From: Paracoccaceae bacterium
Lineage (GTDB): Bacteria; Pseudomonadota; Alphaproteobacteria; Rhodobacterales; Rhodobacteraceae
Direction: 5' to 3'
Assembly: GCA_965243215.1 (NCBI GenBank)
Contig: CBDEUJ010000005.1
Coordinates: 936,546 to 1,000,545 of the forward strand
DNA: 64,000 nucleotides
In this document: in pieces, positions 22,801 to 30,367 of the stretch
How the letters are laid out: each line of letters starts with the position of its first letter
Numbering within the stretch: position 1 is the stretch's first letter
Program-made: the position numbers and the translations under genes
The notes under the pieces: generated by a model
Database searches by the model: none
Seen by the model: the letters and a program-made list of their open reading frames with translations, nothing else
What the model was told of the DNA's origin: nothing

Positions 22801-22919
22801 ATGCCAGTTCCAGTTTCAGAGCATGTCCGGAAGCGCGGGGCTGCGCCCTGTCCAAATCTGGGTGCCCGACACGCGCCGTCCCGGCTTCGCCGCGGAGTGT
22901 CGTCGTCAGGCGCGGCTAG
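22801..22919 (+). pseudogene. 5' part of a DUF3018/MazE-like antitoxin gene, truncated by IS insertion
   Basis: The frame from the ATG at 22823 gives [32 protein letters not shown], the hallmark [11 protein letters not shown] motif. The RBS-preceded ATG at 22801 is in another frame (EHVRKRG) and joins only if one G of the GGGG run at 22837-22840 is removed. Confidence 0.7.
22916..22919. repeat. CTAG, left copy of the putative target-site duplication of the outer IS
   Basis: Direct reading; the partner copy is at 29961-29964. Confidence 0.6.
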
Positions 22920-23031
22920 CCCGACTTCCGCAACTCGAGGGTTTCGAGGTCCGTAACCCATTGATATTCCTGAATCCGACCCCCAAAGGTCGGCACTACA
23001 CGGCGGCCGACGGACAGCGGGTTGCACGCCG

Positions 23032-23373
23032 TCACGAAGAGAGTCGTGGCGCACCTTGTGCCGGCAGGGTCATGCCGAGCTGGTGCAGCAGAAGCTCGTG
23101 CTCCTTCCTTGGCTGGGTGTAGCGCGGCAGGACGAGATGCCGGCCGTCGGTTGTGGGCAGATGCACGTCCACCATCTGGATCGTGCCGAATGCCTCGATG
23201 ATGGCGCGCGGGGTCAGCCCGCCGGCACGCGGGCGGGCGATGTTCTTCAGCGTCACCAGCAGGCAGTACGCGATGAACGAGACGAAGATGTGCGCTTCGA
23301 TCCGTTCCTCGACCTGGTGGAAGACGGGACGGACCGCGAGGTCGTGCTTCAATTCCTTGAACGCCTGCTCGAT
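23032..23373 (-). pseudogene. C-terminal fragment (~113 aa) of the IS4/IS1634-like DDE transposase
   Basis: IEQAFKELKHDLAVRPVFHQVEERIEAHIFVSFIAYCLLVTLK...LTPRAIIEAFGTIQMVDVHLPTTDG is the conserved C-terminal block of this transposase type. It is in frame with the N-terminal fragment once 23374..28402 is removed. Confidence 0.8.
23368..23373. repeat. CTCGAT, left junction copy flanking the serine-recombinase element
   Basis: Direct reading; an identical hexamer lies at 28397-28402. Confidence 0.6.
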
Positions 23374-23400
23374 ATAGCAAACAAAATGCCTACAAAACGT

Positions 23401-23428
23401 TTACAGGGACGTTGCAGCCCCATATACT
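23401..23428 (+). promoter_or_regulatory. sigma70-like promoter TTACAG-N16-TATACT in the left arm of the recombinase element
   Basis: Direct reading. It is oriented toward the recombinase gene but is now separated from it by the IS1595 element. Confidence 0.35.
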
Positions 23429-23439
23429 GGCCCACGAAA

Positions 23440-23447
23440 CCTTGGTT
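23440..23447. repeat. CCTTGGTT(G), left copy of the IS1595 target-site duplication
   Basis: The identical 8-9 nt string is at 26116-26123(4), immediately outside both IRs. Confidence 0.8.
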
Positions 23448-23473
23448 GGGGAATTATATACTTGCCTAACCAT
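23448..23473. repeat. IS1595 left inverted repeat
   Basis: GGGGAATTATATACTTGCCTAACCAT. Its complement matches ATGGTTAGGCAAGTATATAAGCCC(C) at 26092-26115, with a 20-nt perfect core and one indel. Confidence 0.85.
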
Positions 23474-28366: not shown

Positions 28367-28396
28367 CACACTTTGGGGGTAGCATGTCTGGCAGTT

Positions 28397-28402
28397 CTCG
28401 AT
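28397..28402. repeat. CTCGAT, right junction copy flanking the serine-recombinase element
   Basis: Direct reading; an identical hexamer lies at 23368-23373. Confidence 0.6.
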
Positions 28403-29809
28403 TTCGACGAGCCGCATGTACAGGCGCCAGAGCTCGGCCGGGTCCTCGGCCACCATGTTGGACCGCAGCAGGTAGCGGCCCTCGCGCCGCCGGACCTCTC
28501 GCAGCCGTTCGCGGCGAAGGCGGAACGAGAACCCGTGCGCGGCGAGCTCCTCCGCGGTCGCCGGCACGCGGATGTCGACCAGGCCCCAGGCCCGGCCCGC
28601 GTCCTTCCTGGCAGCGCCGAGCTTGAGCATCAGCTGGTCGCGGCCGTTGGACTGGCCCTGCAGCTCGCCGAGCCGCCGCCAGAGCCTCTTCAGGCGGCGC
28701 CGGCGCATCGCGCGTTCCTTGTGCAGCCGCCCCTCCGAGCGCACCAGCACGTACAGCTCCCCGTCCTCGACGAGAAGCTTGACGCCCACGCTCTCGCGCA
28801 CCTCCTGCCAGGGCCGGTCAAGGAACGCCTTCTCGAACTTCGTCAGCCGGCCCTTGGGCGTGCCGACGAGATAGCGCACCGGCGCATCGCCCTCGCGCAT
28901 CTGCTGCAGGGTCTCCTCCGTCGGGATGCCGCGGTCCATGATCCAGATCCGGTCGGAGCGGCCGTACTGCCGCTCGATCCGCTCGAGGAAGCCGGCCAGC
29001 GTGCTCTGGTCGGAGGTGTTGCCCGGCATCACCTCGTAGGCCAGCGGAAAGCCGTCCGGCGTGACGACCAGCGCGATCACCACCTGCACGCAGTCCGGGC
29101 GGCTGTCGCGGCTGTAGCCGAACTGGCGCTTGTCGTCGAACGGAGGATCGCTCTCGAAACAGGTCGAGGTCAGGTCGTACACCAGGATGTCGAACCGCGC
29201 GTCGAACAGCGTCGCCCATCGCTCGCGCAGGAAGGAGAAGAACGCCTCCCTGTGCACGAGCAGCCTGTCGAGGCAGCGGTACAGCGTGTCCGCGGGGATC
29301 GCCCGGTCGCAGCCGAGCAGGTCGCGCAGGGCGCTGTGCTCGAACCAGTGGCGGTGCAGGCGCCACTCGCTGCCCGGATCGACCAGCCGGTAGCAGGCCA
29401 GGATCTTCAGCACGTCGAGCCAGCGCGTGCCCTGCCGGCTCGGAGGCAGGCGCGGCGCCCAGAACCGGTCCAGCTCCAGCCGGTCCCACAGGGTCAGGGC
29501 CAGCCAGCAGGCCCCCCACTGGCGAGGGTCGTGCAGCGACACCTCCGCGACGTTGATCTTCACCACCTCGCAGTCCAGCTCGGGCGACTCCCGGTCCTCG
29601 GGAAACAGCGCCACCTGACGCGATCCCGACCGGCCTTCCAGCACCTCGATCGCGCGGCACCATGCCGCGCGCTGGCTGTCGTTGATCTCGCCGAGATACA
29701 GGACCTGACGCTGGACGACCCGGCCGCCGCGCACGCGGCAGTTCTCCACCACGCTCCAGTAGCGGTGTTCCTTGCCGTCCTTGAATCGCTTCTTGCAGCG
29801 CACGAACAT
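28397..29809 (-). pseudogene. N-terminal fragment (471 aa) of the IS4/IS1634-like DDE transposase
   Basis: MFVRCKKRFKDGKEHRYWSVVENCRVRGGRVVQRQVLYLGEINDSQRAAW... is followed to ...AELWRLYMRLVEIE. The sequence then becomes unrelated (NCQTCYPQ...) after the CTCGAT junction. Confidence 0.8.
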
Positions 29810-29960
29810 GGGCGGAGACTCCGCCGTCGCGACCCCCAGATCAAGGGGGCAGGTCGGCACTACACGCGACTTCTGGGGGTCGGGTCCTTGAAAACAAGGC
29901 GCTTCCAGCGCCGAAACCAGGCAAATTCGTCAAAACACGCGTCGAGTTTCTGAAGTCGGG

Positions 29961-29964
29961 CTAG
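29961..29964. repeat. CTAG, right copy of the putative target-site duplication of the outer IS
   Basis: Direct reading; the partner copy is at 22916-22919. Confidence 0.6.
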
Positions 29965-30044
29965 TCGCCGGGGCGGATGAGCGTGACACGGATCCGGCGA
30001 CATTGATGGACTCTGCCCTGAACGACCTGGATGAATGGCGGTGA
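29961..30044 (+). pseudogene. 3' part of the DUF3018/MazE-like antitoxin gene
   Basis: cta gtc gcc ggg gcg gat gag ... gaa tgg cgg tga gives [27 protein letters not shown]. It is in frame with 22823..22915 after IS excision, and its stop overlaps the toxin start by 10 nt. Confidence 0.7.
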
Positions 30045-30367
30045 GGAGCGGCGAACTGGTGACCGTCGCCCAGCCGGGCGACTTCGGCAAGCCGCGCCCT
30101 GCACTGATCATTCAGGCGGACCAGTTTGCTGATCTTGGCGCCGTGGCAATTCTGCCAATCACGTCCACGATGGTTGATGCGCCACTCCTGCGCTTGACAG
30201 TTGCGCCCTCTGCCGAAAACGGACTGCGCATGGCCTCGCAGATCATGCTGGACAAGCCCATGACCGTGAGGACCGACAGGACCGGGCCAACCATTGGTCA
30301 GATTGACGACACCGCCATGATCAGCGTGAGCCGTTCGTTGGCGATTTTTCCAGGTTTGGCTGGATGA
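30035..30367 (+). CDS. type II toxin, PemK/MazF family (appears full length)
   Basis: MAVRSGELVTVAQPGDFGKPRPALIIQAD......VAILPITST....PLLRL.V.PS..NGL...SQIMLDKPMTV....G..IGQIDD..M..V.R.L fits the MazF/PemK pattern. Confidence 0.75.
   Translation: MAVRSGELVTVAQPGDFGKPRPALIIQADQFADLGAVAILPITSTMVDAPLLRLTVAPSAENGLRMASQIMLDKPMTVRTDRTGPTIGQIDDTAMISVSRSLAIFPGLAG

Follow-up and report, generated by a model that had tools for sequence, protein, structure and literature searches.

A four-layer nest of mobile elements in a Paracoccaceae genome and a family of serine recombinase elements apparently homing to conserved motifs of mobile-element genes

We analysed a stretch of 64,000 nucleotides from a Paracoccaceae bacterium (contig CBDEUJ010000005.1 of assembly GCA_965243215.1, positions 936,546 to 1,000,545), referred to as the window, in which positions 22801 to 30367 hold four selfish elements one inside the other: a toxin-antitoxin (TA) pair interrupted by an insertion sequence (IS) of the IS1634 family, the transposase gene of which is interrupted by a small element built around a single large serine recombinase (LSR) gene, which in turn is interrupted by an IS1595-family transposon carrying a type II restriction-modification (R-M) system. 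This nesting had been proposed in a first-pass annotation; all three excisions work when scripted in silico, and the proposed families (IS1634 IS, LSR element, IS1595 with R-M, MazE-like/PemK) all hold in family scans. The relative chronology proposed along with it is supported, as each layer has a natural uninterrupted counterpart and there is a natural empty site for each step (loci L002-L005, L006 and L007). That all reconstructed empty sites are found in nature makes the nesting more than a chance pattern. All evidence is computational and comes mostly from metagenome assemblies; within this scope the nest is a fully verified, clean relative chronology of selfish elements. We consider successive events in one sponge-associated Rhodobacterales lineage, together with a homing lifestyle of the LSR element, as the joint best explanation, with a probability of roughly 0.88.

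The outermost layer is a MazE-like (DUF3018) antitoxin gene, the 5' part of which (codons 1-32) is found at 22823..22919 on the plus strand, assigned by PF11455, by its homologue P0121 and by synteny with L007, and the 3' part of which (26 codons and the stop) is found at 29965..30044 on the same strand, followed by an intact PemK/MazF-type toxin gene encoding 110 aa (30035..30367, plus strand; PF02452 at 6.6e-17). As proposed, excision of 22920..29964 joins ...CRRQARL to VAGADERD..., resulting in a 58-aa MazE-like antitoxin overlapping the intact PemK toxin. The restored protein matches PF11455 with E=6.8e-23, reaching the last profile position, and shares 91% identity in full length with the 58-aa P0121 ('Boseongicola sp. 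SB0675_bin_26'), encoded at the sister locus L007. Both genes share 10 nt, the last 10 nt of the antitoxin gene spanning the ATG of the toxin gene, i.e. a small antitoxin lies directly upstream of, and overlapping, a PemK/MazF toxin as in the MazEF/PemIK-type arrangement. The sister locus L007 contains this TA pair intact with a single CTAG, is 97-99% identical to the window on either side of the IS and is followed by the same downstream genes, i.e. PBP5-type carboxypeptidase, thymidylate kinase and DNA polymerase III delta'; its toxin matches that of the window at 104 of 111 aligned positions (110 residues and the stop). Most antitoxin homologues are 72 aa long. The window (22801-22870) and L007 (~772-840) have lost ~20 nt near the 5' end, leaving the conserved N-terminus MPVPVSEHVRKR in another frame and the 58-aa product starting from an internal start codon. 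This lesion predates the IS insertion, since the uninterrupted sister locus shares it. As genomic context, a tRNA-Ser(TGA) gene is located 340 bp downstream of the toxin gene (30705..30794, minus strand; ARAGORN and Rfam). Between an oxidoreductase gene and the TA pair we observed a 154-aa open reading frame (ORF) at 22095-22559 (minus strand) with a weak N-terminal match to Phd/YefM (E=1e-3, below cut-off), which may be left over from a second TA module or be spurious. The whole region gave no megablast match to the PLSDB plasmids, and within the 64-kb window no second copy of any of the four elements was found.

The IS1634-family IS lies between two copies of the target duplication CTAG (22916..22919 and 29961..29964), which is present once in L007. 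Its first arm (22920..23373, minus strand; assigned by L006 and NF033559) holds a terminal inverted repeat and the C-terminal part of the transposase gene (codons 472-582, stop at 23032-34), and the other arm (28403..29960, minus strand; assigned by alignment of the restored IS) holds the other inverted repeat and the N-terminal part (start at 29809); the ends read CCCGACTTC(N2)AACTCGA in inverted orientation. Excision of 23374..28402 with one CTCGAT retained joins ...RLVEIE to QAFKELK, as the first-pass annotation had it, and restores a continuous 582-aa transposase on the minus strand (...LYMRLVEIEQAFKELKHDLAVRPVFHQ...) that scores 292.8 bits against the IS1634 model NF033559 (cut-off 100), with a match from position 3 to 481 of the 483 in the profile, and that also matches PF01609. 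The restored IS of 2012 bp aligns without gaps and with 97.7% identity to L006 3850-5861 on a 2.83-Mb contig, the junction sequence being identical; CTA/CTA borders this intact copy. The best homologue of the restored transposase, with 98% identity, is the 582-aa protein P0001 encoded at this L006 locus, and more than 100 homologues have exactly 582 aa, showing that both restored ORFs (582-aa transposase and 58-aa antitoxin) have full-length homologues, the lack of which had been named as grounds for refutation. The IS1634 family typically shows a target duplication of 5-6 bp (ISfinder). The copy described here differs from this norm in its 3-4-bp CTA(G) duplication and is otherwise an ordinary member. 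In the metagenome-assembled genome (MAG) contig L002 (JAPPDM010000308.1, GCA_028824515.1) positions 5378-6843 carry 12 single-nucleotide polymorphisms in the right arm of this IS and then run into an unrelated locus with BubE, ThiF and HTH/M78 peptidase genes, which is probably an assembly jump to another copy of the same IS. The switch of L002 to another, variant copy is evidence that the IS is multicopy.

Within the transposase gene lies the LSR-only element. Its left end of 75 bp (23374..23448, plus strand) is cut off by the IS1595 transposon from the remainder including the right end ...ATGTCTGGCAGTTCTCGAT (26125..28402, plus strand), as defined by alignment with its relatives L008, L009-L012 and L013. 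With the IS1595 transposon removed, the element comprises 2353 bp, i.e. 208 bp, the gene for a 702-aa LSR (26258..28366, plus strand; Pfam Resolvase, Recombinase and Zn_ribbon_recom) and 36 bp. The protein shows an N-terminal resolvase domain with the Ser nucleophile (PF00239, residues 24-175) followed by recombinase (PF07508, best stretch 204-313) and zinc-ribbon (PF13408, 324-379) domains as characteristic for LSRs; R29, Q30 and S31 of the nucleophile motif YVRQS31 are invariant in 23 homologues. A C-terminal HTH_17/MerR-like stretch (residues 624-667) stays below the Pfam cut-offs, PF12728 being precomputed for many homologues, and we speculate that it is a candidate for the control of both integration and excision in a one-gene element. 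A search of PDB sequences returned as nearest solved relative only a marginal match, SPbeta integrase YokA (E=1e-4). The element is also bounded as expected for an LSR, namely by att sites sharing a 2-bp crossover, without target duplication and with a precise empty site in L006. It is flanked by two copies of CTCGAT that represent microhomology at the att core, the left one at 23368..23373 (reverse complement ATC GAG, encoding Ile470-Glu471; defined by the L006 empty site and the relatives) and the right one at 28397..28402 (defined by the junctions of relatives).

The closest relatives (L008, L009-L012 and L013) align end-to-end with the restored element at 79-87% nucleotide and 76-85% protein identity in different flanks, their host in each case being a transposase gene of the IS1380 type (DDE transposase, PF13701) on the opposite strand that is split 100-120 residues from the C terminus. 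Beyond these, ~7,400 or more LSR homologues are known, and a genome-collection scan with an LSR alignment returned at least 592 genomic matches. Many of the ~700-aa homologues are found on contigs of just 2.3-2.7 kb, which is the signature of a repeat of that size. Among loci L014-L093, the LSR copy most similar to that of the window (L014 3501-5503, Paracoccaceae MAG OY759511.1) is pseudogenised, the matched frame containing 18 stops, and still adjoins the N-terminal part of a Tn5-like transposase that ends with ...FYLRRWRIE.

The innermost layer is the IS1595-family transposon of 2668 bp (23449..26116, plus strand), flanked by an 8-bp target duplication CTTGGTTG (23441..23448 and 26117..26124) that is present once in L002-L005. 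Its ends, GGGAATTATATACTTGCCTAACCAT... and ...ATGGTTAGGCAAGTATATAAGCCCC in inverted orientation, bound this unit inside the direct repeat and form inverted repeats of ~25 bp (GGGAATTATATACTTGCCTAACCAT and GGGGCTTATATACTTGCCTAACCAT). A second copy with an 8-bp duplication of its own (AAAATAAG) in L094 fixes the boundary and thereby the limits and the duplication given here. The excision of 23448..26123 proposed earlier correctly leaves a single target copy, with boundaries that are off by 1 nt. The transposon encodes an IS1595 (ISXO2-like) transposase of 321 aa (23513..24478, plus strand) assigned to this family by PF12762 (4.6e-41), the zinc-ribbon PF12760 and NF033547 (186.5 bits, cut-off 75), an N4/N6 DNA methyltransferase of 227 aa (24714..25397, plus strand; PF01555 at 3e-36) and an MvaI/BcnI-family restriction endonuclease of 227 aa (25403..26086, plus strand; PF15515 at 5.7e-26). 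The latter two genes are 5 nt apart on the same strand, which is the arrangement of a type II R-M system of predicted activity. Copies in L094 and L095 are 99-100% identical in other contexts and carry the same 321-aa transposase gene, and the GC content of the transposon is 56% compared to 63-68% in its surroundings. It is inserted 75 bp from the left end of the LSR element and 133 bp upstream of the LSR start.

Four other, independent assemblies encoding an identical recombinase protein, i.e. MAG contig L002 and the short sponge-metagenome contigs L003-L005, join the window sequence up to 23448 directly to that from 26116 onwards with 99.7-100% identity and a single target copy; from this direct junction it follows that they contain the recombinase element inside the IS without the IS1595 transposon. 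The IS1595 transposon was the last to arrive, and its presence still varies within the population. Between transposase and methyltransferase genes lies a perfect 8-nt tandem repeat CAGCCCGA of 11.1 copies (24578..24666, plus strand; Tandem Repeats Finder), located inside a short ORF (24475-24687), the start of which overlaps the transposase stop in ATGA. The number of units is 10 in the window, 7 in L094 (4202-4257) and 3 in L095 (4234-4257), the copies being otherwise 99-100% identical. Only with 3 units is the upstream ORF fused in frame to the methyltransferase, resulting in a 288-aa protein; in the versions with 7 or 10 units its end lies 27 nt short of the methyltransferase ATG. From its sequence, the tract may act as a phase-variable switch operating by slipped-strand mispairing. 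L095 3167-10684 (GCA_965243495.1, CBDEUZ010000006.1) contains several IS1595-type transposase genes, each followed by a different R-M system (MvaI/BcnI-type, a BsuBI/PstI-type fused protein, and MethyltransfD12 with NotI-type), which suggests IS1595-family elements being recurrent vehicles of R-M systems. Transposon-like R-M units with inverted repeats and 8-bp duplications were described before (PMC2853133), as were, by Siguier et al. 2009 as cited there, IS1595-family elements with passenger genes. The layer found here is of this known kind, its own feature being the 8-nt repeat tract shifting the frame upstream of the methyltransferase.

The order of events recorded by these layers starts from a chromosomal mazE-like/pemK pair upstream of tRNA-Ser with an antitoxin gene that had already suffered the ~20-nt 5' deletion. 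The 2012-bp IS then entered antitoxin codon 32/33 at CTAG, duplicating CTA(G), presumably removing the last 26 residues of the antitoxin and placing the toxin gene 7 kb from its promoter. Into its transposase gene the 2353-bp LSR-only element was inserted, probably by conservative site-specific recombination (attP x attB), and finally the 2668-bp IS1595-family transposon into the 5' non-coding region of the LSR element with an 8-bp duplication. An origin of the nest as an artefact, either by chimeric assembly of metagenome reads or by repeat-mediated deletion or rearrangement, might be seen in L002, which is chimeric across the right arm of the IS as judged by its clustered polymorphisms and different flank. 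Yet, independent assemblies made with different pipelines show the same junctions, those of the IS1595 transposon excepted. Each layer is bounded by exact terminal repeats or a target duplication and has its empty site in nature, full-length homologues exist for the restored ORFs, and the IS1595 transposon comes with inverted repeats and an 8-bp duplication of its own as well as with identical copies at other places. Deletion or rearrangement, the second possible refutation named in the first-pass annotation, is opposed by the precise empty sites in related genomes, and we regard an artefact as scarcely credible.

Regarding the position of the LSR element, the junction falls directly at the codon of the catalytic Glu of the DDE triad. 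The shared sequence CTCGAT was considered as a target duplication and rejected, as relatives share as little as GA. The sequence shared at the resolved junctions ranges from GGATATCGA (up to 9 nt) down to GA alone, and GA (TC on the plus strand of the window), i.e. the first two bases of the Glu codon, is its sole constant. A GA core with variable flanking similarity would be the appearance of a 2-bp serine recombinase crossover with variable likeness of attP and attB, and CTCGAT is not a target duplication because this explains the shared junction sequence. Writing the host protein with a slash at the point of insertion, the junctions read YMRLVEI-E/QAFKELK in the window (IS1634), VAVDI-E/EAFKNLK in L015 and WTVDI-E/RTFRTTK in L022 (both IS1634-type), AARWKI-E/AGFREIK in L017 and KRWPA-E/ECFQQAK in L044 (both IS701), YAERWQI-E/IAFLHLK in L046 (IS4), YGYRWHV-E/EFHKLLKSG in L030 (Tn5-like), RRWVV-E/RTFAWL in L068 (IS5-type) and YCKRGEM-E/NRIKDQQ in L013 (IS1380). 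L046 and L030 show exactly the spacing of the IS4-family YREK signature, Y-(2)-R-(3)-E-(6)-K, the Glu of which we take to correspond to the catalytic E326 of Tn5 transposase. Profiles of the termini built from the four close LSR elements did not recover the ends of distant relatives in nhmmer searches, and junctions are for this reason defined at the level of the protein motif; a narrow hidden Markov model of the motif following the Glu recovered only the close cases.

Other clades of LSRs use other motifs. Junctions in reverse transcriptase (RT) genes of group II introns read ...DIEKCFD/RINH and ...RPLGIP/, and a junction in IstB lies at ...IGDP/TYADAILDRL, the conserved C-terminal GDP motif. 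Distant clades are found antiparallel in RT genes (at two motifs) and in IS21 istB (L071, L075, L085, L088, L093; L076, L084). We performed in-silico excision in L013, L017, L030, L046, L068, L071 and L084; at six loci this restored single-stretch, full-length Pfam matches across the junction (DDE_Tnp_1_4 1-431 of 435; DDE_Tnp_1 up to 192-199 of 200 at three loci; IstB 2-235 of 238; RVT_1 1-205 of 205 together with GIIM), and excision in L030 restores the Tn5 dimerisation domain. In L015, L017, L022, L026, L044 and L046 the element end next to the C-terminal transposase fragment carries an in-frame mimic of the displaced motif, for example YQRWGVE, HYRWLIE (…YRWLIE) and GYQRWPIE. Judged by sequence, these mimics are consistent with related attP and attB half-sites, arising either by convergence of binding sites or by capture of target sequence.

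We surveyed 80 loci (L014-L093; 33-54% identity) returned by the genome-collection scan, among the at least 592 matches listed, with hosts from Proteobacteria, Planctomycetota, Actinomycetota, Cyanobacteria, Chloroflexi, Acidobacteriota and one archaeon. Flanking ORFs were classified by all-against-all clustering and Pfam, and the ORF abutting the LSR stop in antisense orientation was counted for the 48 loci with enough flank, where one ORF may match several Pfam families: DDE_Tnp_1 (14), DDE_5 (5), DDE_Tnp_1_4 (3), RVT_1 (3), IstB_IS21 (2), IS66 (1), Tnp_DNA_bind (1) and others. Combining Pfam counts and junction motifs we estimate that ~30 of the 48 loci lie in mobile-element genes; the same-strand control gave mobile-element matches at 3 of 47. 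Only 4 of the antisense ORFs are clearly ordinary, non-mobile genes. The targets across relatives comprise DDE transposases of IS1634, IS1380, IS701, IS4, Tn5-like and IS5 types, IstB of IS21 and group II intron RTs, and the insertion of a one-gene element antiparallel into a conserved motif is seen in the window, L008, L009, L013, L015, L017, L022, L026, L030, L032, L044, L046, L068, L071, L084 and L088. In a neighbour-joining tree RT-, IstB- and Glu-targeting LSRs form separate groups, close relatives of the Glu group being located in different IS families. The cultured Leptolyngbya sp. PCC 7375 (JH993797.1) has two copies, L030 3161-5731 and L032 3184-5752, which are 99.7% identical over 2571 bp, lie 4.6 Mb apart and interrupt unrelated transposase genes, making this strain a tractable organism to study whether the LSR element is mobile. 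Sequences, boundaries, antiparallel geometry, motif-level target statistics and multiple copies are thereby directly observed, as are the empty sites of the nest. For the recombinase layer, the initial remark on mobile elements being the target of other mobile elements can be taken literally; this layer belongs to a family specialised in such targeting.

These statistics bear on the possibility that the LSR is a serine transposase of low specificity, comparable to TnpX of Tn4451, landing by chance, with the bias toward mobile genes reflecting merely where insertions are tolerated. Only GA is strictly common to the junctions, TnpX also uses a GA crossover, and some relatives (L025 and L031) abut ordinary genes. 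Tolerance alone, however, would scatter insertions along genes and in both orientations, while we observe one codon of one motif in one orientation in at least six transposase families, the excess of antisense mobile-element ORFs over the same-strand control, and separate LSR clades at separate motifs (RT motif 2, RT motif 3 and IstB GDP). We therefore judge a chance landing of this kind very improbable and favour homing to conserved motifs, catalytic in the case of DDE transposases, by a family of one-gene, IS-sized elements in mobile-element genes. As a proposed fitness rationale, the target sites would be multicopy, dispensable for the host, conserved and horizontally mobile.

We propose a model according to which the element would excise as a circle with its ends joined into attP, the predicted junction being ...ATGTCTGGCAGTTCTCGAT/ATAGCAAACAAAATGCC..., and the LSR would synapse attP with the motif-coding attB, cleave at GA and exchange strands. 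In the window, the crossover would lie at GA of the codon for the catalytic Glu471 (...YMRLVEI-E/QAFKELK), splitting the DDE triad and thereby inactivating the transposase, which precise excision would restore. As the element has a single gene, the LSR presumably performs both directions. The occupied IS, devoid of its catalytic Glu, could move only with help provided in trans by intact copies. The recombination chemistry and the direction in which the LSR acts are what we infer from the junctions.

Several observations weigh against the reading as a whole. The attP circle junction was not found in scans of JGI metagenome contigs with degenerate patterns, and the four 2.4-kb contigs for the homologue P0248 turned out to hold integrated copies, their IS1380-type flanks being short and their termini not overlapping. 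Moreover, LSR activity and two-way recombination without a directionality factor are inferred from sequence. For about one third of the surveyed LSR loci no target gene could be identified, and at least L025 and L031 lie next to ordinary genes. As for the nest, the IS1595 junctions are seen in the window only, the IS1634 duplication has 4 bp (CTAG) in the window and 3 bp in L006, and the switch of L002 to another IS copy in the right arm illustrates that chimeric assembly around repeats does occur.

Instead of a selfish hyperparasite, the element could be a reversible switch, i.e. an interruption element like those at fdxN (XisF) or sigK (SpoIVCA), splitting the transposase gene until a regulated precise excision and kept to control the IS, for which speak that excision after conservative serine recombination would restore the gene exactly and that the LSR gives a weak, partial match to the XisF model. 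Membership of the XisF type was rejected, as the score against NF041201 (97.1 bits) is far below the cut-off of 375. Furthermore, there are several copies per genome in different IS families, the homologues occur in many phyla without link to differentiation, many metagenome contigs break at the element ends as they do at repeats, and pseudogenised copies exist (L014 with 18 stops). Multiple copies, many phyla and pseudogenes are typical of a proliferating selfish element, so that a maintained switch appears unlikely, although selfish and switch readings are not mutually exclusive. On balance, we lean to the view that LSR elements of 2.3-2.6 kb with one gene are widespread, so far unrecognised obligate parasites of mobile elements that recognise motif-coding DNA, cross over within the key codon, thereby switch off their host element reversibly and have been retargeted from clade to clade. 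The knock-out would be reversible because serine recombination is conservative.

If this holds true, these enzymes would be natural protein-guided integrases, the specificity of which follows a protein-coding motif across divergent DNA. As dedicated parasites they would add a trophic level to the ecology of mobile DNA and could limit IS expansion by knocking out catalytic residues, while the truncated transposases left behind might inhibit intact copies. They may also explain many of the genes annotated as 'recombinase family protein' on 2.4-kb metagenome contigs and many split transposase pseudogenes. For genome engineering, they might provide related LSRs with att sites known by inspection that tolerate diverged targets sharing a coding motif, being useful for studying the evolution of att specificity.

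A search of the full-text literature returned no description of systematic targeting of transposase genes by serine recombinases, the closest being two isolated cases (PMC4874684). An LSR family homing to catalytic or conserved-motif codons of mobile-element genes is apparently undescribed, whereas the DDE layers and the TA pair of the nest are ordinary. The two cases, the transposase genes Ava_B0242 and that of ISSoc8, belong to the cyanobacterial interruption elements excised by XisF-type serine recombinases (Hilton et al. 2016, PMC4874684). These, and the sigK 'skin' element with SpoIVCA, share with the element described here an LSR gene at one element end antiparallel to the interrupted gene and a conservative, gene-restoring excision. 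In contrast to the LSR element of the window, interruption elements are usually larger, carry cargo, are single-copy and are tied to heterocyst or spore differentiation, and no homing of a whole family to the codon of the transposase catalytic Glu, to RT or to IstB was described for them.

In Tn4451/Tn4453 and Tn5397, a single LSR of ~700 aa (TnpX and TndX, respectively) carries out excision to a circle as well as insertion, the crossover comprising 2 bp (GA for TnpX). Their targets resemble the joined element ends, and the transposons are 6-21 kb in size with cargo, occur in Firmicutes and choose their targets loosely. Compared by description, the LSR element of the window differs in its 2.35 kb without cargo, its distribution over many phyla and its motif-specific targets in mobile genes. 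TnpX/TndX serine transposases are mentioned in PMC3556126. IS607 (PMC6188088, PMC4058570) is likewise IS-sized, uses a serine recombinase, lacks inverted repeats and target duplications and has a MerR/HTH_17-like domain. Its TnpA is a small recombinase with an N-terminal helix-turn-helix and minimal target specificity, often accompanied by TnpB, in contrast to the LSR with a C-terminal helix-turn-helix found here.

Homing of mobile elements to mobile elements is known from group II introns in IS elements. It is also known from IS1111/IS110 elements in transposon ends or attC sites (PMC11187229) and from integrative and mobilizable elements inside genes of integrative and conjugative elements (PMC5704250). 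All of these employ other enzymes and another mode of recognition, and none is reported at the codon of a transposase catalytic residue across families; what they have in common with the LSR elements is the use of another mobile element as a safe, multicopy and horizontally travelling landing site.

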